A stretch of DNA of 31,484 nt from the IMG/VR virus record IMGVR_UViG_3300029517_000011. One strand, 5' to 3'. The position numbers and the translations under genes were made by a program. Of this stretch, positions 1,468 through 12,719 are shown piece after piece. Positions within the stretch are counted from its first letter, which is position 1; each line of letters begins with the position of its first letter. The stretch comes from a virus (taxonomy: Duplodnaviria > Heunggongvirae > Uroviricota > Caudoviricetes). Under the pieces are notes generated by a model that saw only the letters and a program-made list of their open reading frames with translations, did no database searches and was not told the origin of the DNA.

Positions 1468-2413
1468 ACGCCCACTGGTTATAAACACGCAGCTGGCAAT
1501 GAAAATTGGCTTAAACGAAGCCATTGTTTTGCAACAACTGCACTACTGGTTGAGAGATACCAACTCCGGCATGGAATGTGATGGTGTTCGCTGGATTTAT
1601 AACACAACGGAACAATGGCTGGAACAGTTCCCATTCTGGTCAGAGTCAACGTTAAAGCGCGCGTTTGCAAGTCTGAAAACGCTGGGGCTTTTGCGTTGTG
1701 AAAAGCTCAATAAATCAAAGCGCGATATGACCAATTTCTACACGATCAACTATGGGAGCGAGCTTTTAGATGGTGGCAAATTGAGCGAATCCATCGGTTC
1801 AAAATGCGCCGCTCCATCAGGTCAAAATGACACGATGGAAGAGGTCAAAATGAAACGCTCCATTGGTTCAAAACGACCCAATGTCATCGGGGCAAAATGG
1901 CCTGATGATCTTACAGAGAATACAACAGAGATTACTACAGAGAATAAAAACACTTTTCGTCCGGAAGCTTCGCAACCGGACCCGCAGACGACTGAACAGG
2001 ATTCTTTAACCCGGAACTCCGACGCGGTTGTGTTTAGTGCGAAAAAACGCCAGTGGGGTAGCAGGGAGGATTTGGCGTGTGCGCAGTGGATCTGGGGGCG
2101 GATCGTGGGTCTCTACGAACAGGCAGCCAGTGATGATGGCGAGATCATGCGACCAAAAGAGCCTAACTGGACTGCCTGGGCCAATGACGTGCGCACAATG
2201 CGGATGCTGGATGGCAGAAGCCACAGACAAATTTGCGAAATGTTTGGTCGGGTTCAGCGAGATCCATTCTGGGTAAAAAACATCATGAGCCCGTCAAAGC
2301 TCCGCGAAAAATGGGACGAACTGGTCATCCGCCTGGGACGTTCACCTGTACAGCGTTGTGTTAATCATATTTCTGAACCGGATACAGAAATTCCGCCTGG
2401 TTTCAGAGGATAA
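1448..2413 (+). CDS. Phage replication initiation protein (O-like; iterons lie inside the gene)
   Basis: ORF track frame 1394-2413; I prefer ATG 1448 (MSLLFAERPLVINTQLAMKIGLNEAIVLQQLHYWL...), which gives an N-terminal HTH-like domain. Five 23-bp direct repeats sit mid-gene as in lambda O. The C-terminal half resembles primosomal/DnaT-like replication proteins from memory. Confidence 0.6.
   Translation: MSLLFAERPLVINTQLAMKIGLNEAIVLQQLHYWLRDTNSGMECDGVRWIYNTTEQWLEQFPFWSESTLKRAFASLKTLGLLRCEKLNKSKRDMTNFYTINYGSELLDGGKLSESIGSKCAAPSGQNDTMEEVKMKRSIGSKRPNVIGAKWPDDLTENTTEITTENKNTFRPEASQPDPQTTEQDSLTRNSDAVVFSAKKRQWGSREDLACAQWIWGRIVGLYEQAASDDGEIMRPKEPNWTAWANDVRTMRMLDGRSHRQICEMFGRVQRDPFWVKNIMSPSKLREKWDELVIRLGRSPVQRCVNHISEPDTEIPPGFRG
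1791..1950. repeat. Candidate origin of replication: five tandem 23-bp iterons (1791-1905) followed by an A-rich segment (1906-1950)
   Basis: Units start at 1791, 1814, 1837, 1860 and 1883, with consensus about CCATNGGTTCAAAATG. Exact 23-bp periodicity (TCAAAA at 1799, 1822, 1845, 1868, 1891). Followed by TACAGAGAATA-type A-rich repeats. Confidence 0.7.
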
Positions 2414-2453: not shown

Positions 2454-2876
2454 GTGGCAAAAGTTTTTACACAAGAAGAGCGGGAAAAAATTAAATGGCA
2501 GGTGGTGGAACTCGTGCGCCAGAGCGGCCGTGAGACGTTACGGCAACTGGAAGCTAAAACAGGTGCGACTAGATATCTGATGAGCGTTCTTGCCAGAGAG
2601 CTGGTAGCCAGTGGCGATGTATACAACTCCGGCTACGGGTTATTCCCCTCTGAACAGGCGCGTAAGGACTGGCAAAACGCCCGCAAAAAACTCTCGAGGG
2701 CAAAGGTGAAGAAACCTGCTGTGGTTGATCCGGACCTTATCTGGTCATCACCTGACGGAGAAATACGTCGCTACGACAGTCGCCTAAACATAATCTGTCG
2801 CGAGTGCCGGAAGAGCGAAGTTATGCAGCGCATACTGGCTTTCTATCAGGGTAATTTTCAGGACGTGGCGCAGTGA
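2454..2876 (+). CDS. Hypothetical protein (140 aa)
   Basis: GTG start at 2454 preceded by SD TAAGGGGGA. Stop overlaps the next gene's start (GTGA at 2873-2876), suggesting translational coupling. Confidence 0.6.
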   Translation: MAKVFTQEEREKIKWQVVELVRQSGRETLRQLEAKTGATRYLMSVLARELVASGDVYNSGYGLFPSEQARKDWQNARKKLSRAKVKKPAVVDPDLIWSSPDGEIRRYDSRLNIICRECRKSEVMQRILAFYQGNFQDVAQ

Positions 2877-3229
2877 GTGCACCGGCAACCATTCTTGATA
2901 TGTGCTGTGGCAGCCGCATGTTCTGGTTCGATAAGTCTGACAAACGGGCGATATTCAGCGATATCAGAAAAGAAGGATACACATTACGCAATGGGAGACG
3001 CTTGATTATCAGCCCTGACATTATCGCAGATTTTCGTGCATTATCATTTGCAGACGCATCTTTTTCGATGGTTGTATTAGACCCTCCGCATCTTGAGCGT
3101 GTTGGTGATAACGCCTGGATGGGAAAGAAATATGGACGGCTGAATAAAGATGCCTGGCGTGATGATTTGCGACAGAGATTTAAAGAAGCTTTTCGGGTGT
3201 TGAGGCCGCACGGCGTTCTGATTTTTTAA
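2873..3229 (+). CDS. SAM-dependent DNA methyltransferase-like protein, probably C-terminally truncated or interrupted by an in-frame TAA
   Basis: Motif I-like LDMCCGSRMF near the N-terminus and DPPH (motif IV-like of N6/N4 amino-methyltransferases) at about residue 70. ORF ends at TAA 3227-3229, but the same frame stays open for 29 more codons (WNETQIPVSQILALTDRKPVICQRTGKKR) to TAA 3317-3319. Confidence 0.5.
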   Translation: MSAPATILDMCCGSRMFWFDKSDKRAIFSDIRKEGYTLRNGRRLIISPDIIADFRALSFADASFSMVVLDPPHLERVGDNAWMGKKYGRLNKDAWRDDLRQRFKEAFRVLRPHGVLIF

Positions 3230-3491
3230 TGGAATGAAACGCAAATACCGGTAAGCCAGATTCTGGCACTGACAGATAGAAAGCCTGTTATCTGTCAACG
3301 AACAGGGAAAAAACGATAAAACCCACTGGATTATTTTTATGAAAGAGGCATCCAGTGAGTAGATTCGTAAGGTTACAGATACGTATATCTGAATAATTAA
3401 ATTCAGTTCTGTAAATAAAACTTAATCCTTAACCGGATGGATTTCTGCACCCTCAGAACATCAGGAGGCCGCCCGAAAGGGCGGTAGTGAA

Positions 3492-3602
3492 ATGCGAAAG
3501 TTCAAAATTATTATTGAAACGGGAATAGCTGGTGGAGATTTTGAGGATGTATTCGAAGTGGACGATGACGCAACACCTGATGAAATTCATGACGGAGCAT
3601 AA
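3492..3602 (+). CDS. Small acidic hypothetical protein (36 aa); frame remains open for 23 codons beyond the TAA
   Basis: ATG 3492 follows a GC hairpin (3468-3485, GAAA loop) and GGAGG at 3463-3467. Product MRKFKIIIETGIAGGDFEDVFEVDDDATPDEIHDGA. Below the size cut-off of the ORF track. Confidence 0.3.
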   Translation: MRKFKIIIETGIAGGDFEDVFEVDDDATPDEIHDGA

Positions 3603-3666
3603 GAAATTTTCTTTAACTACTGCAATTACTCATACCACGAAATAAAAGACGATGAGGAAGAACAAA

Positions 3667-3777
3667 GTGGCTGATTTTTGTTCAGCTAAATATAACATCA
3701 GTTTTGAAGAGCGGGATGAACTATTAATGGACTATGGTGAATTACGCGGTGGAAGTGCTGCTGATGTCGAATCCTAG
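3667..3777 (+). CDS. Small hypothetical protein (about 37 aa); same frame reopens after TAG 3775-3777 for 21 codons
   Basis: SD GAGGAAG at 3655-3661 then GTG 3667 (alternative ATG 3652). Acidic, protein-like product (...YNISFEERDELLMDYGELRGGSAADVES). Confidence 0.25.
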   Translation: MADFCSAKYNISFEERDELLMDYGELRGGSAADVES

Positions 3778-3839
3778 CGTGATGACTATGAAGCGGGAAA
3801 AACTCCGGTCGAAGCATATTGTGATGAGTGGGGCGATGA

Positions 3840-4094
3840 ATGAGCGAGATTAATTATCAGGAAGGGCATGAAACGGCGGGGCAAGCAAAACCAGTGGCAT
3901 GGCGATATCGCTACGTGAAAAAAGCGTTACGGACTTTCAGGGGAAGTAGTGGTCTGGTGACTGGAAATATGTACCGAAAAAAGAGGATTGTAACGACAGG
4001 CCGAACTATCAAATTCAGGCCTTATTCACTGCCTCACCAGTCCCGGTTACATCAGAAGAACTGGTTAAAGCTGTGCACTTTTATGAACAACTAA
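3840..4094 (+). pseudogene. Possible frameshifted or degraded small gene
   Basis: ORF-track ORF 3840-4094 starts plausibly (MSEINYQEGHETAGQ...), but its 3' half looks non-protein-like while the -1 frame reads a protein-like ...VPVTSEELVKAVHFYEQLKRENPPTSGN. Confidence 0.3.
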
Positions 4095-4380
4095 AACGCG
4101 AAAATCCACCAACATCCGGCAACTAGATTAATGGATTAACTATGTCGGTTAAACGACCAGCCAACTGAAAAAGCGGAAACCTGATTACAGGTTGCCAGAT
4201 AAGGCAATGAGCTACCTGGCGCGGAACGGACTGATAAGTATGGGGAATGTTTTACGATGAACCTTTAGACTAAAGAGTTTGTAACGCTATGTAAGTGATT
4301 TTTTCTGGTTTAGATATTTATATGTCCGGCCAAATTGAGGTGTGTTTAAATGTAATTGCACATTGATTGTAGGAGGAATA

Positions 4381-4560
4381 ATGAAAAACGCATTGCAGTT
4401 TTTGTTTGTTGCGTTCTGGTTGTTCGCATCATGTATGCCCATCATCTTCACAGCAAGGTATATGGAAAAAGTTGATGTTTTGATATTAATATTTGGATAT
4501 ATAAATGCCCTTTTTTTAGGGGTGTTCATGGCGGTCATGTGCATTGAATACTGGCGGTAA
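4381..4560 (+). CDS. Small hydrophobic membrane protein (59 aa, two predicted TM segments)
   Basis: ORF track frame 4342-4560; strong SD AGGAGG then ATG 4381 (MKNALQFLFVAFWLFASCMPIIFTARYMEKVDVLILIFGYINALFLGVFMAVMCIEYWR). AT-rich upstream region. Confidence 0.55.
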   Translation: MKNALQFLFVAFWLFASCMPIIFTARYMEKVDVLILIFGYINALFLGVFMAVMCIEYWR

Positions 4561-4708
4561 ATACAGCGAACTCCATTGGTTTAGTTGGATATTTACTGTG
4601 CTGGACAAAAACGGTTTGCGGGGAAATCTTAGTTAAGTAGAATGACTGCGGGTGCTTGAGGCTATCTGCCTCGGGCATGGACACCAACGGCAGATAGAGA
4701 AAAGCCCC

Positions 4709-6584
4709 AGTTAACATTACGCGTCCTGCAAGACGCTTAACATTAATCTGAGGCCAATTTCATGCTAGACACATGTAGGTTAGCCTCTTACGTGCCGAAA
4801 GGCACGGAGAAGCAGGCTATTGTTAACACCAAGCTGTAATGTCCCCTTTGAACCATTCTAAAATGTCCCCAGACAATTCTCTGGGGGATTTTTCATGACC
4901 AAAGAAACTGTTACGATGAGTCATAAGGAACTCCACCGACTTCAGATTATTCAGGAGTCAATTAATCGACATATTACTCAGGAACAAGCTGCGGCACGCA
5001 TTGGCATTTCTATTCGGCAGGTTAAACGTCTGGTGCAACGGTATAGAAATGAAGGGCCTTCTGGTCTGGTTTCCCACCGACGTGGAAAGCGTCCTAATAA
5101 TTCCTTTTCTACTGAATTCAGAGCAACAGTAATTTCACTCCTCAAAGGCCGTTACGCTGATTTTGGACCTACGTTTGCGTGCGAAAAATTGCGCGAGATA
5201 CACGGTTTATCTTTATCCGTTGAAACTCTCAGAAAGTGGATGATAGAAGAGGGGTTATGGCGTGAACGCCGTCGTAAAATTGCCCGTATATATCAACGCC
5301 GCATGCGACGACCATCTTACGGTGAACTGATCCAGATTGATGGCTCACCTCATGACTGGTTTGAAAATCGAGGCCCCAGATGTACACTGATCGTTTTCAT
5401 TGATGATGCCACCAGTGCGTTGATGGCGTTGCGTTTTGTGCCTGCTGAAACAACCCGGGCTTACATGGAAACCCTCCGGGGTTACCTTAATGATCATGGC
5501 GTACCGCTCGCTCTCTACTCTGATAGACACAGTATATTCAGGGTAAATAACCCAGAGCGGGAAGGTGAGCTGACCCAGTTCACTCGTGCGATAAAGACAC
5601 TGGGCATCGAGCCAATCCATGCCAACAGCCCGCAGGCAAAAGGGCGGGTAGAGCGCGCCAATCAGACACTACAGGACAGGCTGGTCAAAGAAATGCGGCT
5701 TCAGAATATCAGTGATATTGAAACAGCAAATGCATGGTTGCCGACCTTTATTGAAGCCTATAACAACCGGTTCGCTACGTCGCCTCGTACTACTGATAAT
5801 GCTCATCTTGATGTGCACCATTCTGAAGAGGAACTGGGTTATATCTTCAGCCTACAGGCGAAGCGCGTTCTGTCTAAAAATCTCACTTTCCAGTACAAAA
5901 GCAGTGCGTTTCAGGTACGCAGTGAGGGCCGGGGATATCGACTTAGGCATTCGGTTGTTACTGTATGCGAGAACTTTGACGGTGAAATTAACGTTCTGTA
6001 TGACGGGAAAGCGCTGGGCTGGGAAAAGTATGTTGATGGCCCGGAGCCTATACCACTGGATGATGAAAAGAGTGTCCATGAACGAGTGGATAATGCCCGT
6101 ATTGATTTACGCTCAAAATACTATGTTAAACCTAAAGCTGACCATCCCTGGCTTACGCGCCGAACGCAAAGTCATCAGCAAGTTAAGCCCCCGAAGTTAC
6201 CTAAAAAGAAGCCTGATCCCGATAAAAAAGATTGAAACCAAGATCGATTCGGTTGAGTGCATATCCATTCATAGGGTAGATTCTTAAGTCGCGTTTCTGG
6301 TGTTCATTTTCGGGTGGTTTGTTACTTGTTTTACCGGGGATATGCCAGAAACGCGCTGAGTCAGTCTGGGCGGTGCGCGTAATGAGGCGTTATGGTAAAT
6401 AGCCTATGCTAATGTCCGCTAAGAGCAAGAAGCGGAAGTTGGCAGTTTTGTGGACTGTCCCCACAAAAGTGACTACAGAAATAGTTGCAATTCATAATTG
6501 ATCATGGGTTGTCAGTTAAACTCGTGGCGATTTAAATAGACTAATTGGGAGTGCGTCCATTACTTATATCTTGTAATGTTAACT
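4709..6584 (+). mobile_element. Insertion sequence with a single rve-type DDE transposase; ends not resolved (4709 and 6584 are only a provisional 12-bp inverted match)
   Basis: Single transposase gene 4895-6235 with no second IS gene, interrupting the phage nin-like region. AGTTAACATTAC (4709-4720) is the reverse complement of 6573-6584. No convincing longer terminal inverted repeat found by eye. Confidence 0.3.
4895..6235 (+). CDS. IS transposase, HTH N-terminus plus rve integrase-core DDE domain (446 aa); IS481/ISNCY-like architecture
   Basis: ORF track 4895-6235. N-terminal HTH (ITQEQAAARIGISIRQVKRLV). Catalytic-core-like segments LIQIDGSPHDW, ALYSDRHSIF and ANSPQAKGRVERANQTL fit D, D, E spacing of retroviral-integrase-type transposases. 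SD GGGGGA sits inside a hairpin (4867-4886) before the ATG. Confidence 0.85.
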   Translation: MTKETVTMSHKELHRLQIIQESINRHITQEQAAARIGISIRQVKRLVQRYRNEGPSGLVSHRRGKRPNNSFSTEFRATVISLLKGRYADFGPTFACEKLREIHGLSLSVETLRKWMIEEGLWRERRRKIARIYQRRMRRPSYGELIQIDGSPHDWFENRGPRCTLIVFIDDATSALMALRFVPAETTRAYMETLRGYLNDHGVPLALYSDRHSIFRVNNPEREGELTQFTRAIKTLGIEPIHANSPQAKGRVERANQTLQDRLVKEMRLQNISDIETANAWLPTFIEAYNNRFATSPRTTDNAHLDVHHSEEELGYIFSLQAKRVLSKNLTFQYKSSAFQVRSEGRGYRLRHSVVTVCENFDGEINVLYDGKALGWEKYVDGPEPIPLDDEKSVHERVDNARIDLRSKYYVKPKADHPWLTRRTQSHQQVKPPKLPKKKPDPDKKD

Positions 6585-8358: not shown

Positions 8359-8385
8359 AACCCGCTTCGGCGGGTTTTGTTTTTT
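8359..8385 (+). terminator. Intrinsic terminator after relBE-hokD
   Basis: Stem AACCCGC / GCGGGTT with TTCG loop followed by TTGTTTTTT. Confidence 0.7.
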
Positions 8386-8457
8386 CCTGGCATTCTGGTT
8401 TACAATTCGCACGCCAGCCTGAACAACTGGCACCTGCTGCGCCAGCAGAGACAACCG

Positions 8458-8736
8458 ATGGCGCACGATACCAAATTACACAATTCTGATGATTCTGCCG
8501 TCTTTGCCAGCAGGCACGGGCGGCGTTCCCGCACTTTCAAATCTGACTGGTTCCAGCATGACCCATGCACTGAAGAACAGGCCGAGTGGCTAATTCAGTG
8601 CTACCGCAGACACGGATACGAGATTAAGAAAGCCCTCAGCCTCGATTATCGTCACTGGATAATCTCCGTCAGGCTTCCTTACTCTGAACGCCCACCGCGT
8701 CCGTCTCGCACATTCCAGCAGCGTATCTGGAGGTAA
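8458..8736 (+). CDS. Hypothetical protein (92 aa), Rem-like by synteny with Qin (relB-relE-hokD-rem)
   Basis: ORF track frame 8329-8736; I start it at ATG 8458 because the 5' extension overlaps the terminator at 8359-8385. Stop TAA 8734-8736 abuts the next gene's GTG. Confidence 0.5.
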   Translation: MAHDTKLHNSDDSAVFASRHGRRSRTFKSDWFQHDPCTEEQAEWLIQCYRRHGYEIKKALSLDYRHWIISVRLPYSERPPRPSRTFQQRIWR

Positions 8737-8737
8737 C

Positions 8738-9793
8738 GTGCGGGTATTACTTCGACCTGTTCTGGTACCGGAACTCGGGCTGGTGGTCCTTAAGCCGGGC
8801 CGTGAATCCATGCAGGTATTTCATAATCCCCGGGTGCTGGTGGAGCCGGAACCGAAAAGCATGCGCGGTCTGCCGTCAGGAGCTGTTCCTGCCGTGCGCC
8901 AGCCGCTCGCGGAAGATAAATCATTACTGCCATTTTTCAGCGATGAGCGGGTGATTCGTGCTGCTGGCGGCGCTGGCGCATTGTCTGACTGGCTGTTACG
9001 CCATGTTAAATCCTGCCAGTGGCCTCATGGTGACTACCACCACAGTGAAACCGTCATACATCGTTACGGTACCGGCGCGATGGTATTGTGCTGGCACTGT
9101 GATAATCAGTTACGCGACCAGACTTCAGAATCACTCGGGCAACTTGCTCAACAAAACCTGACATCCTGGATGATTGACGTCATCCGCCACGCAATAAACG
9201 GTACACAGGAGCGGGAGTTATCGCTGGCTGAATTATCCTGGTGGGCGGTCTGCAATCAGGTAGCGGACGTATTGCCGGAGGCAGTATTACGTCGTTCTCT
9301 GGGATTGCGTGCGGAAAAAATCCGCTCGGTGTACCGCGAAAGCGACATCGTACCGGGAGAGCAGACCGCCACCAGCATACTGAAGCAGCGCACAAAAAAT
9401 CTTGCGCCGCTGCCTCACGCCCACCAGCAAAACCCGCCACAGGAAAAGACGGTGGTCAGCATTGCCGTTGATCCGGAGTCACCGGCTCAGTATCTCCAGC
9501 GCCAGAAACCACAACGGGAAGAGATGCCTGTATACACGCGCTGGGTAAAAACGCAGAAATGCATGACGTGCGGTAATCAGGCAGATGATCCGCATCACAT
9601 CATTGGTCATGGACTGGGAGGGATGGGAACAAAGGCTGATGATTTGTTTGTTATTCCGCTGTGCCGCAAATGTCATAACGAACTGCACGCCGGGGTAAAA
9701 GATTTTGAAGAAAAACACGGCAGCCAGCTGTTGTTGCTGATTCGTTTTTTAATGCACGCGAGAAATTCGGGCGTCCTGAAGTGGAAAGCATAA
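8738..9793 (+). CDS. DUF968-type protein (YdfU-like, 351 aa) with C-terminal Cys/His HNH-like motifs
   Basis: GTG 8738 preceded by GGAGG. C-terminus CMTCGNQADDPHHIIGH...CRKCHNELH resembles a zinc-finger/HNH-like motif. Size and position match Qin ydfU from memory. Confidence 0.65.
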   Translation: MRVLLRPVLVPELGLVVLKPGRESMQVFHNPRVLVEPEPKSMRGLPSGAVPAVRQPLAEDKSLLPFFSDERVIRAAGGAGALSDWLLRHVKSCQWPHGDYHHSETVIHRYGTGAMVLCWHCDNQLRDQTSESLGQLAQQNLTSWMIDVIRHAINGTQERELSLAELSWWAVCNQVADVLPEAVLRRSLGLRAEKIRSVYRESDIVPGEQTATSILKQRTKNLAPLPHAHQQNPPQEKTVVSIAVDPESPAQYLQRQKPQREEMPVYTRWVKTQKCMTCGNQADDPHHIIGHGLGGMGTKADDLFVIPLCRKCHNELHAGVKDFEEKHGSQLLLLIRFLMHARNSGVLKWKA

Positions 9794-10171
9794 ATGACAG
9801 AATGCATAGAGTTTGTTTTGCCTTACCCGCCGACGGTGAACACCTACTGGCGCCGTCGTGGTAGTACATATTTTGTATCAAAAGCTGGTGAGCGTTATCG
9901 CCATGATGTGGAGCTTATTGTTCGCCAGCAGCGACTGAAATTAAATCTGTCCGGTAGGTTGGCAATCAGGATTATTGCAGAGCCACCGGATAAGCGCCGC
10001 CGCGACCTGGACAATATCCTGAAGGCACCACTGGATGCGCTGACACATGCAGGACTGCTTATCGACGATGAGCAGTTTGACGAAATCAATATAGTGCGCG
10101 GTTTGCCTGTTCCTGGTGGGCGACTGGGCGTGAATATTTTCGTAATAAGAGGTAGTAATGATGGTGCGTGA
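9794..10171 (+). CDS. rusA: Holliday-junction resolvase RusA (125 aa)
   Basis: ORF track 9794-10171. PYPPTVNTYW...DKRRRDLDNILKAPLDALTHAGLLIDDEQ shows the RusA pattern (acidic DxD catalytic region) and typical lambdoid nin-region position just before Q. Confidence 0.85.
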   Translation: MTECIEFVLPYPPTVNTYWRRRGSTYFVSKAGERYRHDVELIVRQQRLKLNLSGRLAIRIIAEPPDKRRRDLDNILKAPLDALTHAGLLIDDEQFDEINIVRGLPVPGGRLGVNIFVIRGSNDGA

Positions 10172-10529
10172 TATTCAGATGGTTCTTGAGCGGTGGGGGG
10201 CATGGGCTGCGAGTGATAGCTCTGGGGTAGACTATTCACCTATAGCAGCTGGTTTTAAGGGGCTTATGCCGCAGATAAGTAAAACACGAATTTCTTGTAC
10301 AGACGATGACGCTCTTATCATTGAGAGCTGCCTTGCTTTACTAAAAAAGAAAAAACCGTACGAACATTCTCTGATTGTGGCTCATTACCTATACGGCATC
10401 TCGAAACGGAAGATTGCAAAGGCACGCAAAAAAGATGAGAAATTGATACGGATAGAGATCCAGATGGCAGAGGGCTTTATCGATGGCTGTCTCTCAATGC
10501 TTGATGTTCGTCTCGAGATGGAATTGTGA
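10158..10529 (+). CDS. Late-gene antiterminator Q, short Q family (123 aa)
   Basis: ORF track 10158-10529. N-terminal IQMVLERWGAWAA motif typical of the roughly 125-aa phage antitermination-Q family; positioned between rusA and the lysis region. Confidence 0.7.
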   Translation: MMVRDIQMVLERWGAWAASDSSGVDYSPIAAGFKGLMPQISKTRISCTDDDALIIESCLALLKKKKPYEHSLIVAHYLYGISKRKIAKARKKDEKLIRIEIQMAEGFIDGCLSMLDVRLEMEL

Positions 10530-10545
10530 ACCTCTTGAATATTCT

Positions 10546-10573
10546 AAACGGCCTAAGGGCCGTTTTATTCTTC
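10546..10573. terminator. Convergent hairpin terminator shared by Q (plus) and the inverted cassette (minus)
   Basis: Perfect 8-bp stem AAACGGCC / GGCCGTTT with TAAG loop at 10546-10565, followed on the plus strand by TATTCTTC. Lies 17 nt after the Q stop and directly after the stop of minus-strand gene 10565-10993. Confidence 0.6.
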
Positions 10574-10993
10574 TTTAGTAACTTCAATAGGTAAAACTTC
10601 TACATTCTTACCAATGTTAACAATCTTTCTAACAGTTTCTTCCCGATCAGCAATAAGCTCAGCTTTAAATTTCTCGCTTAGATGAGGGCTTTTCAGTTGC
10701 TCATCAATACCTTTTAAATCTCTCTCAAGGCGATTTCTTAGGGCGGCTTCGGCTGGAGACTCAAGTCCATGTCGATTGATAACATACAACATAATGTAGG
10801 TTAGCATTGCTGACACTAATGGGGCGAGGGCATACAAAAAAGCTCTCCATTCACTATTAGGGTCAGGCGCCAATAGTGGTACCAATGTAGTTAGAACTGC
10901 GCCAATCCCGCCTGTTGTTAGACCAGAATTACTACTTAAAATGCTTTTTTTATCACCGCTCATTATTTGACTGCCTGTGCGCGGTTGCATCAT
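10565..10993 (-). CDS. Cassette gene 3: membrane protein (about 142 aa, two predicted TM helices, charged coiled C-terminus)
   Basis: ORF track 10565-10996; start among clustered ATG/TTG codons at 10990-10996. Hydrophobic stretches GIGAVLTTLVPLLA and FLYALAPLVSAMLTYIMLYVI. Overlaps the end of cassette gene 2. Confidence 0.6.
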   Translation of the reverse strand: MMQPRTGSQIMSGDKKSILSSNSGLTTGGIGAVLTTLVPLLAPDPNSEWRAFLYALAPLVSAMLTYIMLYVINRHGLESPAEAALRNRLERDLKGIDEQLKSPHLSEKFKAELIADREETVRKIVNIGKNVEVLPIEVTKEE

Positions 10994-11216
10994 CAATTAG
11001 CTCAACGATCTTCTTTCCATCTTTAGCATCTAAGTGGATAGTAATCGTTTTTTCAAGCATGCGTTCAGCACTGTAAAACCTTAGTTCTACGATTTTTGTA
11101 GGAAAAATTTTACGCCACAACAACGCGGAACCAGCATAAACAAAGCGATAGAAGGTCGGGAGACTTACAAGCACCCCCAACCAAAAAACGATTTGTAAAA
11201 GCTGTTGCTGAATCAT
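10953..11216 (-). CDS. Cassette gene 2: small membrane protein (87 aa, one N-terminal TM helix)
   Basis: ORF track 10953-11216. LLQIVFWLGVLVSLPTFYRFVYAG hydrophobic segment. Starts 15 nt after the stop of cassette gene 1. Confidence 0.6.
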   Translation of the reverse strand: MIQQQLLQIVFWLGVLVSLPTFYRFVYAGSALLWRKIFPTKIVELRFYSAERMLEKTITIHLDAKDGKKIVELIDDATAHRQSNNER

Positions 11217-11231
11217 TAGTTTCTACCAAAG

Positions 11232-12113
11232 CTAGATCAATTTTTTCCCTTGAATCACGCGATGACGAAGTACTTTCTTGATAACATACTTTTCTGTTTG
11301 TCCTCGTGCGGAAGTTGTACGTGTTGTTTCTAGAAGCACAGAAAACATATCTTCACTTGTGATCGTTCCCTCTGCTTGCCTTACTTTAGCTAAAAACTCA
11401 TAGTCTGTAAGTAGTACGGAGTGCTCATCTTGGTTGTAGTCCATCCTCCACCCCTTCTCACTATGAAAGTTAACTTGGGTAAATTTTACATTAACCTCTT
11501 TTTCTTCAACTGTTTTGGTCAAAAGCGTCCCTCTGGGAAGGGGTTTAATCTCTTCAGTTTGCTCTCCTTCAAGCTTGAGCAAAACTTTATCATTCTCATC
11601 TACAATTTTAAAAATGGGAGAGTCTTTACCATCTAAAGGAGCCTGAACAACAGAAATCAACGCATCCCGAATTGTTGGCTCAGTTACCAAGGTTGCAACT
11701 GCTGATGAGCATTCAATCTCACCATCTTCAAATTCAAGAACAGCCTTATCTGTTCCTGCTTTTTTGGTAATCGAAACAACTTTTTTTGAGCCTAATTGTC
11801 TTATTAACGATAAAGCGGTGGCATGAGCTGTTGCGCCCACAGTTCCAACAATCCCGATAGTTTGCAGAACGTCAATTGCATGCGGTAGGAGTTGCACTAC
11901 AGTATATGCAATACCCACAGATCCTTTCTGGATGGGGGCAGTGACTAAAATTTTTACAGATTTGTTGCCCTCATTTAACAAGCTATCAGCTTTATTAATA
12001 AGAGTTGTCATGGAAAGTATTGATTTACCAAGTGTTTCAGCGTCAATAGCATGCTTTGACAATTCTTTATCATTGGCGTCATAAAACACCTTAAAGGAAG
12101 TTGACTTCTCCAT
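11232..12113 (-). CDS. Cassette gene 1: soluble protein of unknown function (293 aa)
   Basis: ORF track 11232-12113. SD AAGGA 5 nt before ATG (minus-strand mRNA ...gcatagcAAGGAccgtcATG). No recognisable catalytic motif (no P-loop, HxD, etc.). Confidence 0.7.
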   Translation of the reverse strand: MEKSTSFKVFYDANDKELSKHAIDAETLGKSILSMTTLINKADSLLNEGNKSVKILVTAPIQKGSVGIAYTVVQLLPHAIDVLQTIGIVGTVGATAHATALSLIRQLGSKKVVSITKKAGTDKAVLEFEDGEIECSSAVATLVTEPTIRDALISVVQAPLDGKDSPIFKIVDENDKVLLKLEGEQTEEIKPLPRGTLLTKTVEEKEVNVKFTQVNFHSEKGWRMDYNQDEHSVLLTDYEFLAKVRQAEGTITSEDMFSVLLETTRTTSARGQTEKYVIKKVLRHRVIQGKKLI

Positions 12114-12371
12114 GACGGTCCTTGCTATGCCTCATTGATTAATGCATATCTTGTTGATGGCTAAATTTGTAGAGACTTAATTTACCTAGAAAAGAAGATA
12201 AAATCACTAACGCGGTCCGCATTTTCTTGTTTATTGTGTTAAGAGTGGTCACTTCGGCATACAGCTTAAAACCGCTGCCGTGCGTTTTTTTGTCGTTTAT
12301 CTCTGATAATTATGGTGAATGCGCTGGTGGAGGAGGTAAGGGTGATTTTTAACCAGGTGATTTTTGAATGC

Positions 12372-12400
12372 TTGCAACATTGATTTCGTAACGTTATTAT
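12372..12400 (+). promoter_or_regulatory. Sigma-70 promoter TTGCAA-N17-TATTAT immediately upstream of the tRNA cluster; candidate late promoter (PR-prime equivalent)
   Basis: TTGCAA at 12372-12377, 17-bp spacer, TATTAT at 12395-12400; first tRNA begins at 12410. Preceded by direct repeats GGTGATTTTT (12341-12350 and 12356-12365). Confidence 0.55.
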
Positions 12401-12409
12401 CCTGCGCCC

Positions 12410-12485
12410 GGCCCTTTAGCTCAGTGGTGAGAGCGAGCGACTCATAATCGCCAGGTCGCTGGTTCAAATCCAGCAAGGGCCACCA
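12410..12485 (+). tRNA. tRNA with anticodon CAU, ileX/ileZ-like (tRNA-Ile2 lysidine type, or Met)
   Basis: Hand-folded cloverleaf: acceptor GGCCCTT/AAGGGCC, D-stem GCTC/GAGC, anticodon loop CUCAUAA, T-loop TTCAAAT, encoded CCA. Close to E. coli ileX as I recall it. Confidence 0.8.
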
Positions 12486-12486
12486 A

Positions 12487-12563
12487 CCGCCACTAGCTCA
12501 TCAGGAAAGAGCGTCAACCCTTTAAGTTGAGTGTGCGAGGTTCGAGTCCCCGGTGGCGGTCCA
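12487..12563 (+). tRNA. Atypical tRNA: anticodon loop CCUUUAA (formal anticodon UUU, Lys-like) with C instead of U at position 33; C1-G72 acceptor pair
   Basis: Folds as a cloverleaf (acceptor CCGCCAC/GTGGCGG, D-stem GCTC/GAGC with GG in the loop, anticodon stem TCAAC/GTTGA, T-arm GGTTCGAGTCC, encoded CCA) but has a noncanonical position 33 and an A-C mismatch in the T-stem. Confidence 0.55.
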
Positions 12564-12565
12564 GT

Positions 12566-12641
<76 letters not shown>

Positions 12642-12644
12642 TAT

Positions 12645-12719
<75 letters not shown>

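Follow-up and report, generated by a model that had tools for sequence, protein, structure and literature searches.

A described element close to the one analysed here is the cryptic prophage Qin (Kim) of Escherichia coli K-12, with which it shares the rspAB neighbourhood and a set of markers comprising dicB, dicC, ydfA/B/C, flxA, relBE, hokD, rem and ydfU. The resemblance is only partial, however. The element in our window (the whole stretch of 31,484 nucleotides that was analysed, IMG/VR record IMGVR_UViG_3300029517_000011) is much fuller than K-12 Qin, having replication, lysis, and lambda-like structural genes together with a tRNA cluster. The stretch that concerns us most, from a methyltransferase gene to an insertion sequence (IS) remnant, is presumably absent in its entirety from K-12 Qin.

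Defective lambdoid prophages have been discussed in terms of decay and of domestication (Bobay, Touchon & Rocha 2014, as cited in PMC7918605), and their decay or domestication is also the subject of a review (PMC6379469). In-frame stop codons in bacterial genes have been surveyed in their own right (Belinky et al. 2021, PMC7918605); in that survey, they are commonest in mobilome genes, and their excess is attributed to pseudogenes. The stops described below are like the cases presented there (PMC7918605) in that orthologous in-frame stops persist across strains and fall in the mobilome category, but, unlike the stops that the survey treats as tolerated, they lie in a lineage whose polymorphism fits neutrality and whose genes carry additional frameshifts. 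As in defective lambdoid prophages, accessory genes of our element have suffered nonsense mutations, frameshifts, and IS insertions, and some of its genes are still intact.

Two further systems are worth considering as points of comparison. The A1 protein of phage Qbeta is produced by programmed readthrough of a UGA codon; throughout the family the stop is conserved, and what lies beyond it is an additional, distinct domain that is under selection. Our locus is like Qbeta A1 in that the reading frame stays open beyond an in-frame stop, but its stops occur in one lineage only, where they cut a domain that is continuous in all relatives. In phages that have recoded TAG or TGA, a single kind of stop recurs across many genes, most of them late, and a matching suppressor tRNA is present. 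The window is like the recoded crAss-like and Lak phages in combining in-frame stops in phage genes with tRNAs of its own, but it differs from them in having three kinds of stop within 1.4 kb of early accessory genes, clean late genes, and no suppressor anticodon.

A first-pass annotation of the window had drawn attention to three open reading frames (ORFs), each ending at a stop codon beyond which the same frame stays open, and had offered two interpretations, recent nonsense mutation of decaying moron genes on the one hand and stop codon readthrough or suppression on the other. The former is upheld here by sense codons in homologues, by the confinement of the stops to one lineage, by further frameshifts and stops nearby, and by polymorphism that fits neutrality, whereas the latter found no support. 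We consider it very probable that segment 2873–4260 is a decayed accessory-gene module and that its stops are ordinary single-base nonsense mutations, as expected of pseudogene decay.

Results

The module within a Qin-type prophage

The whole window represents the full-length form of a Qin-type lambdoid prophage from E. coli. The 2-kb stretch around the stops matches hundreds of E. coli chromosomes at 99.8–100% identity, and in relatives at 99.8–99.9% identity the prophage adjoins rspAB, with both gene set and locus being those of a Qin-type element. The Qin-type markers in those relatives are dicB, dicC, ydfA/B/C, flxA, ydfV, relBE, hokD, rem, and ydfU. Upstream of the module, the gene order in the relatives is int, xis, exo, ydfD, dicB, ydfC/B/A, a cI-like repressor gene, dicC, a ydaT-like gene, a gene for an O-like replication protein, and DUF977/LygF. 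Downstream, the order runs from the broken genes through an ISEsa1 remnant, ydfW, flxA, ydfV, relBE, hokD, rem, ydfU, rusA, and Q to the tRNAs, which are followed by lysis genes and then by lambda-like head and tail genes.

Segment 2873–4260 thus sits between the replication genes (O-like, LygF/DUF977) and the flxA–relBE–hokD region. It is a mosaic module, with homology to other phages from about 3389 onward and another boundary near 3796. The ORFs for terminase (700 aa), portal (526 aa), protease-capsid (739 aa), and tape-measure protein (1031 aa) are uninterrupted. A scan of 2800–4900 for promoters and terminators returned nothing informative.

Lesions in four consecutive genes

Features of the module and its surroundings are collected in Table 1. 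The three stop coordinates in the first-pass annotation (TAA 3227–3229, TAA 3600–3602, and TAG 3775–3777) are exact, as are the lengths of the open runs that follow them (29, 23, and 21 codons, respectively). Its estimate that chance would give such a pattern a few percent of the time is also reproduced, the product for runs of 21, 23, and 29 codons being 0.028. As a bare open-frame statistic the pattern is weak; inter-stop runs of at least 21 codons make up 35% of all such runs in the window and 53% of those after ORFs of at least 100 aa. The open runs are nonetheless not a chance pattern, because each extension is homologous to the C terminus of intact homologues, and chance open frames as the sole explanation are thereby ruled out. 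The comparison with homologues that had been proposed as a check gave a uniform answer: at the three stop positions, the intact homologues carry the sense codons AAA, AAA, and TGG in 9/9, 81/81, and 81/81 cases, respectively.

Table 1. Positions of the disrupted genes, their nonsense codons and remnants, and other features of the window
Feature	Coordinates	Strand	Evidence
Truncated 5' part of SAM-dependent DNA methyltransferase pseudogene, 118 codons	2873..3229	+	phrog_954; PGAP "frameshifted; internal stop"
Nonsense codon TAA, ancestral AAA (Lys)	3227..3229	+	Lys in 9/9 intact homologues
In-frame methyltransferase remnant, 29 codons, to TAA 3317–3319	3230..3319	+	tblastn homology past the stop
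+1 insertion, GGG for GG, shifting the methyltransferase frame	3305..3307	+	Comparison with intact homologues
Truncated DUF7167 gene, 36/60 codons	3492..3602	+	60-position Pfam model spans the stop
Nonsense codon TAA, ancestral AAA (Lys)	3600..3602	+	AAA in 81/81 intact homologues
In-frame DUF7167 remnant, 23 codons plus original TGA	3603..3674	+	Homology to intact gene
Truncated 58-codon gene (third gene), phrog_519	3667..3777	+	Intact homologues, profile match
Nonsense codon TAG, ancestral TGG (Trp)	3775..3777	+	TGG in 81/81 intact homologues
In-frame third-gene remnant, 21 codons plus original TGA	3778..3843	+	Homology to intact gene
Fourth broken gene, ancestor 171 aa, phrog_660	3840..4260	+	Homologues; PGAP "frameshifted; internal stop"
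IS1202-like ISEsa1 transposase remnant, directly 3' of the decayed module	4895..6235	+	Annotated relatives
Prophage tRNA cluster, four tRNAs, anticodons CAU, UUU, UGU, UCC	12410..12719	+	ARAGORN, Rfam

The first stop interrupts a methyltransferase gene whose intact homologues (phrog_954) are 158–164 aa long. The DNA at this point reads GATTTTTTAATGG, in which a run of six Ts (T6) occupies 3222–3227, and the last T together with AA makes the TAA that ends the 118-aa ORF from 2873. The lesion is an A-to-T change at 3227, at the junction of T5 and A3, that converted ATT TTT AAA TGG to ATT TTT TAA TGG. The lysine at the stop position falls in the motif LIFKWNE, which is invariant in all nine intact homologues, from phages of E. 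coli (Stx2c), Klebsiella, Salmonella, Erwinia, Pectobacterium, Cronobacter, Providencia, Morganella, and Yersinia. Past the stop, the frame reads WNETQIPVSQILALTDRKPVICQRTGKKR (29 codons) up to the TAA at 3317–3319, and a tblastn search returned 254 phage records, with alignments that cross the stop and reach residue 146–147 of the 148-residue read-through translation. The TAA at 3317 is met because the +1 insertion of a G has shifted the methyltransferase frame; the ancestral C terminus, ...GKNDKTHWIIFMKEASSE, runs on in the +1 frame to TAG 3360–3362. The sequence further departs from the nine intact homologues at 5 of the 58 columns on which they all agree (D40N, P58S, F69L (beside the DPPH motif), G102R, and K119*), against 0–1 in close intact relatives, and the repaired window protein scores 274.8 bits against the PHROG profile, versus 294.8 bits for an intact protein. 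The PHROGs collection also holds separate "half" families of this methyltransferase, phrog_11564 and phrog_6151.

The second and third genes have 81 homologous loci (80 IMG/VR contigs and phage vB_EcoS-640R1), every one of which encodes uninterrupted proteins of 60 aa (DUF7167) and 58 aa (third gene). The stop is the sole lesion of the DUF7167 gene, and the frame beyond it reads EIFFNYCNYSYHEIKDDEEEQSG (23 codons) to TGA 3672–3674. The third gene has been altered at its start as well, the ancestral ATG at 3667 having mutated to GTG; the ATG at 3652 that the ORF list gives as the start falls within the remnant of the preceding DUF7167 gene. Beyond TAG 3775–3777, its frame reads RDDYEAGKTPVEAYCDEWGDE (21 codons) to TGA 3841–3843, which together with the ATG at 3840 of the next gene forms an ATGA overlap. 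Against phrog_519, the repaired third-gene protein of the window scores 52.3 bits and an intact one 83.2 bits. Across these genes, the Pfam DUF7167 model (positions 1–60) and phrog_954, phrog_1997, and phrog_519 cover both sides of the stops.

The ancestral frame of the fourth gene contains the stops TAG 3947–3949, TAG 4124–4126, and TGA 4166–4168, and in addition to a G deletion at about 3923, which is found in 10 of 40 lineage members, the window among them, the gene has at least one more frameshift. The three stops first noticed are part of at least nine disabling changes within 1.4 kb. Some genomes of the lineage also have IS3 and IS5 insertions, and sub-lineage indels occur too.

Distribution of the stop-bearing allele

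The stop-bearing allele represents one near-clonal lineage, with fixation of all three stops. Contigs were retrieved from IMG/VR with a pattern that is specific to this lineage and surrounds the second stop; all 43 have TAA 3600. Among the aligned members of the lineage, which number at most 40, TAA 3227 occurs in 39/39 and TAG 3775 in 39/40, the remaining member having TAA, which is still a stop. The segment containing the DUF7167 gene and the third gene is carried by 1,905 of 5,426 complete E. coli genomes. By identity to the window, the matching records divide into 495 at 99% or above, 4 at 95–99%, and about 1,400 at 80–95%, the last being intact-type alleles. When both stops in the query were reverted, the best match went from one mismatch to three, and the whole lineage came out two mismatches lower; no genome having this allele with sense codons was found by this reverted query among the complete E. 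coli genomes. E. coli IAI1 (NC_011741.1) is one of the strains that carry the allele. It was further found in Shigella flexneri and in a deposited phage genome, PhiR42_1, and a scan of genome contigs gave three loci, one of them the same stop-bearing allele in Shigella. A literature search on PhiR42_1 turned up only a preprint using sister phages of the PhiR collection.

This distribution bears on whether the pattern could be an artefact, either a misread T6 homopolymer or codons left open by chance in non-coding DNA. The first stop does lie at the junction of a T run and an A run, and the window has many open runs of 21 codons or more. But the identical bases recur in 39–43 independent IMG/VR contigs, in hundreds of complete genomes, and in one deposited phage genome, and the extensions are homologous to intact proteins. 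The suspicion of an error in the T6 run, which the first-pass annotation had raised, can be dropped, as all 39 independently assembled members of the lineage have TAA 3227. An artefact, already refuted by the population data, has in our judgement a negligible probability.

Divergence and polymorphism

When the stop-bearing lineage is compared with intact alleles, dN/dS is 0.11–0.14 for the DUF7167 and third genes (dS about 0.43) and 0.16 for the methyltransferase. Values before and after the stops are both low, about 0.1 and about 0.17, respectively. These low values imply that the genes were still functional during most of the divergence and that the stops arose late on the branch of this lineage; a low dN/dS against intact alleles is not evidence of current function. 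The neutral phase after the stops looks short. The absence of differences past 3796 marks a recombination boundary rather than selection.

Within the lineage, polymorphisms in the four broken genes number 11 synonymous, 23 missense, and 0 nonsense, compared with 10.2, 22.6, and 1.2 under a neutral expectation that takes in the observed transition bias, in a test of low power. The flanking, apparently intact genes fit neutrality too (10 synonymous, 16 missense, and 2 nonsense, again with low power), and no excess of synonymous change is seen within the stop-bearing lineage by this low-power test, which reveals no constraint but does not prove that there is none. Of some 27 non-synonymous changes, 3 are nonsense versus 1.6 expected, a difference that by our rough estimate is not significant. 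Counted instead as three to four nonsense hits in a short neutral phase against about 1.6 expected, the number is, again as a rough estimate, on the high side (p about 0.1–0.2). Adenine-targeted (diversity-generating retroelement (DGR)-like) or otherwise biased mutagenesis was considered as a source of the changes and rejected, as the 35 lineage-specific differences consist of 22 transitions and 13 transversions and show no A bias. For polarising the lineage-specific changes with outgroups, the IMG/VR sample was biased towards a single intact protein sequence, and the lineage of the window lies on a long unrooted branch.

Discussion

Readthrough and suppression

The stops had been described as lying near an atypical phage tRNA, which suggested suppression, but the tRNA cluster is in fact 8.6 kb downstream of them and does not belong to the decay. 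A search for the anticodons CUA, UUA, and UCA with ARAGORN and Rfam found none among the four tRNAs of the element, which therefore include no suppressor. The atypical member, at 12487–12563, is a tRNA-Lys(UUU) whose position 33 is C rather than U; its Rfam match is weak, at 44 bits, and PGAP annotates its equivalent as tRNA-Lys in genomes at least 98.9% identical. The same tRNA-Lys-like gene is degenerate in about 969 other E. coli records, the sampled ones of which leave it unannotated. It is likewise degenerate and unannotated in strain 400660, yet the same stops are present there. In-frame stops of three kinds (TAA, TAG, and TGA) occur, all within 3227–4168, whereas the long late-gene ORFs are uninterrupted (up to 1031 aa), from which it follows that the standard code applies. 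With sense anticodons only and structural ORFs that read normally, a suppressor tRNA or an alternative genetic code is rejected. The bases that follow the stops give TAA-T, TAA-G, and TAG-C. UAA-U is the strongest terminator context in E. coli, and the classic leaky context is UGA followed by C or A; none of the three stops is of that type.

Could the stops nevertheless be decoded by phage or near-cognate tRNAs, with full-length proteins being made, perhaps at a down-tuned level? Several observations could be read in this way. Two of the stops are TAA at ancestral AAA lysine codons, the prophage has a tRNA-Lys(UUU)-like gene, and misreading of UAA by a near-cognate tRNA-Lys would, in our reasoning, restore the wild-type residue. 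The stops have also been stable through the diversification of the lineage, the one change from TAG to TAA still leaving a stop, and dN/dS against intact alleles is low. But the low dN/dS is explained by divergence older than the stops, and none of the four tRNAs has a stop-reading anticodon, with the tRNA-Lys-like gene itself degenerate both in strain 400660, whose stops are the same, and in the other E. coli records mentioned above. Neither conservation of the stops across the family nor a selected extension was found: the stops are absent from all other homologues and confined to one lineage that is at least 99% identical internally, where polymorphism fits neutrality in the low-power test. 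Moreover, the three stops represent two different codons, T, G, and C follow them at +4, with UAA-U the strongest terminator, the methyltransferase frame is shifted 26 codons past its stop, and several stops and frameshifts lie in the fourth gene. The published survey can be cited on either side, as it (PMC7918605) argues that many bacterial in-frame stops are tolerated but itself puts the excess in the mobilome down to pseudogenes. Overall, functional readthrough or suppression seems to us highly unlikely.

A more restricted possibility is that tRNA-Lys misreads the two UAA codons, boosted by the prophage tRNA-Lys(UUU) with C33, so that the ancestral lysine is inserted and traces of wild-type DUF7167 protein result. 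We rate this as slighter even than readthrough in general. If true, the DUF7167 stop would be an expression attenuator, not a knockout. Such misreading could not rescue the methyltransferase or the fourth gene, because both are also frameshifted.

Selection or drift

It is also conceivable that inactivation was itself selected. Knockouts would then have been favoured in lysogens, where leaky expression of the module might be costly, and the clustering of the lesions would reflect selection rather than time; an orphan methyltransferase, for example, may clash with methylation-dependent restriction. This idea would account for a fixed nonsense codon in each of four consecutive genes whose neighbours (O-like, DUF977, lysis, and structural genes) remain undamaged in full-length members, and for the short neutral phase inferred from dN/dS, and the phrog_11564 and phrog_6151 families hint that the methyltransferase has been fragmented repeatedly. 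However, by the estimate given above, the nonsense/missense ratio is within neutral expectation, and the multiple hits in the methyltransferase and the fourth gene resemble continued drift. Moreover, no parallel, independent knockout of the DUF7167 gene or the third gene was found in other lineages, both genes being intact at 81/81 loci. On balance, selected inactivation appears unlikely.

Pseudogene decay, the reading that we favour, may have proceeded as follows, with first hits that may have been neutral or favoured, for example by the removal of an orphan methyltransferase. A diverged but functional allele of the module would once have been resident in a Qin-type prophage; its four consecutive genes, then intact, encoded a small orphan DNA methyltransferase and proteins of 60 aa (DUF7167), 58 aa, and 171 aa. 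The element would then have turned into a long-term resident, and its four accessory genes took substitutions and small indels, among them, in one lineage, the single-base substitutions of AAA to TAA, AAA to TAA, and TGG to TAG. Fixation of these lesions would have preceded the spread of the lineage through E. coli and Shigella, and decay continues, as seen in the sub-lineage indels and the IS3 and IS5 insertions. The frame stays open past each stop because the remainder of the old gene persists and there has been little time for more stops to arise. Translation is expected to end at the stops, and the truncated peptides are probably non-functional. We infer that the genes became dispensable because the element is kept mostly as a resident prophage.

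Annotation of the locus

So understood, the finding is an ordinary one, the textbook fate of accessory genes in (semi-)defective lambdoid prophages, and it is already present in public annotation, inconsistently. PGAP flags the methyltransferase and the gene at 3840–4260 as pseudogenes and sometimes names the 36-aa fragment "DUF7167 family protein"; the 118-aa and 36-aa fragments are in some records named as intact proteins (WP_182116904.1 and WP_001224658.1) and in others flagged as pseudogenes. The stops have little import beyond annotation hygiene, for which an open frame past a stop in a prophage accessory region is best compared first with intact homologues. The stop-bearing allele is also a convenient marker of this Qin-type prophage lineage, which is found in about 9% of complete E. 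coli genomes and in Shigella flexneri.

Mosaic structure of the decayed module and the window

Two mosaic boundaries, at 3389 and at about 3796, lie within the decayed module. Homology to the widespread intact module starts abruptly at the first of these. The DUF7167 gene and the third gene hold 35 lineage-specific differences, all of them upstream of 3796; past about this position, the "intact" phages and the window hardly differ. The block 8385-12390 diverges from the closest relatives and is a probable mosaic replacement. Across 8441-9485, the homologous locus L005 and the stop-bearing phage PhiR42_1 are only 85-87% identical to the window, and from 9486 to about 12390 neither has any match to it. 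The unmatched span includes a 293-aa minus-strand ORF, at whose position the relatives carry rusA and the Q antiterminator.

Alleles and annotation of the decayed genes

The A-run GTGAAAAAA(A..)G(G) of the fourth gene (window 3912-3949) is variable in many otherwise intact phages, including the homologous loci L004 and L081 and other IMG/VR loci, and versions of 171, 119, 104, 85, and 40 aa are seen. TAG 3947-3949 also occurs in phages with intact copies of the DUF7167 gene and the third gene, and thus the pseudogene allele of the fourth gene predates the three stops and is more widely distributed than they are. The 85-aa frame annotated in phage records may be a spurious ORF.

Public annotation of the 118-aa methyltransferase and 36-aa DUF7167 fragments is inconsistent. 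Some genomes list the former as an intact "class I SAM-dependent methyltransferase" (WP_182116904.1), others as a pseudogene; for the latter, RefSeq has a separate protein entry (WP_001224658.1, "DUF7167 family protein"). In PHROGs, phrog_11564 and phrog_6151 are separate from the full-length methyltransferase family phrog_954, and each matches only one half of the enzyme, N-terminal (residues 2-93) or C-terminal (57-159). These half-length families suggest that split or truncated methyltransferase copies are frequent in phage records.

Features in the window and in homologous loci (L001-L003, in their own coordinates)
Feature	Location	Strand	Details
GC-rich hairpin	window 3468-3485	+	GCCGCCC-GAAA-GGGCGGU; 7 bp, GAAA loop
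Small ORF near sok match	window 4342-4560		
sok antitoxin RNA	window 4650-4821	+	full-length Rfam match, 104 bits
293-aa ORF	window 11232-12113	-	inside span without match in L005/PhiR42_1
tRNA-Lys(UUU)-like gene	window 12487-12563	+	Rfam score 44 bits
Inconsistently annotated fragment	L002 1474-1830		
Inconsistently annotated fragment	L001 4093-4203		
Inconsistently annotated fragments	L003 (PhiR42_1) 1474-1830 and 2093-2203		

RNA elements

In the DUF7167 gene, the hairpin separates the Shine-Dalgarno sequence AGGAGG from the ATG start codon. An alignment shows it unchanged in the intact-allele phages, and the z-score of the 61-nt fold is -2.6. The hairpin might act in translational control or serve as a site of RNA processing.

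Position 33 of tRNAs is a near-universal U. In the tRNA-Lys(UUU)-like gene it is C (anticodon loop CCUUUAA), the T stem has one mismatch, and the Rfam score is 44 bits, versus 65-74 for the three neighbouring tRNAs. The gene may represent a phage tRNA that is decaying or that decodes in an unusual way. Records at least 99% identical to it number 119, and PGAP annotates a tRNA-Lys in genomes with an identity of 98.9% or more. A 95-99% version occurs in approximately 969 other E. coli records, and in those sampled the tRNA-Lys call is absent; the version in strain 400660, a relative with the same stops, has three changes in the acceptor and D stems.

Finally, the sok match points to a toxin-antitoxin module of the hok/sok type, situated after the decayed genes and before the IS remnant and additional to the hokD and relBE loci found further downstream in relatives.
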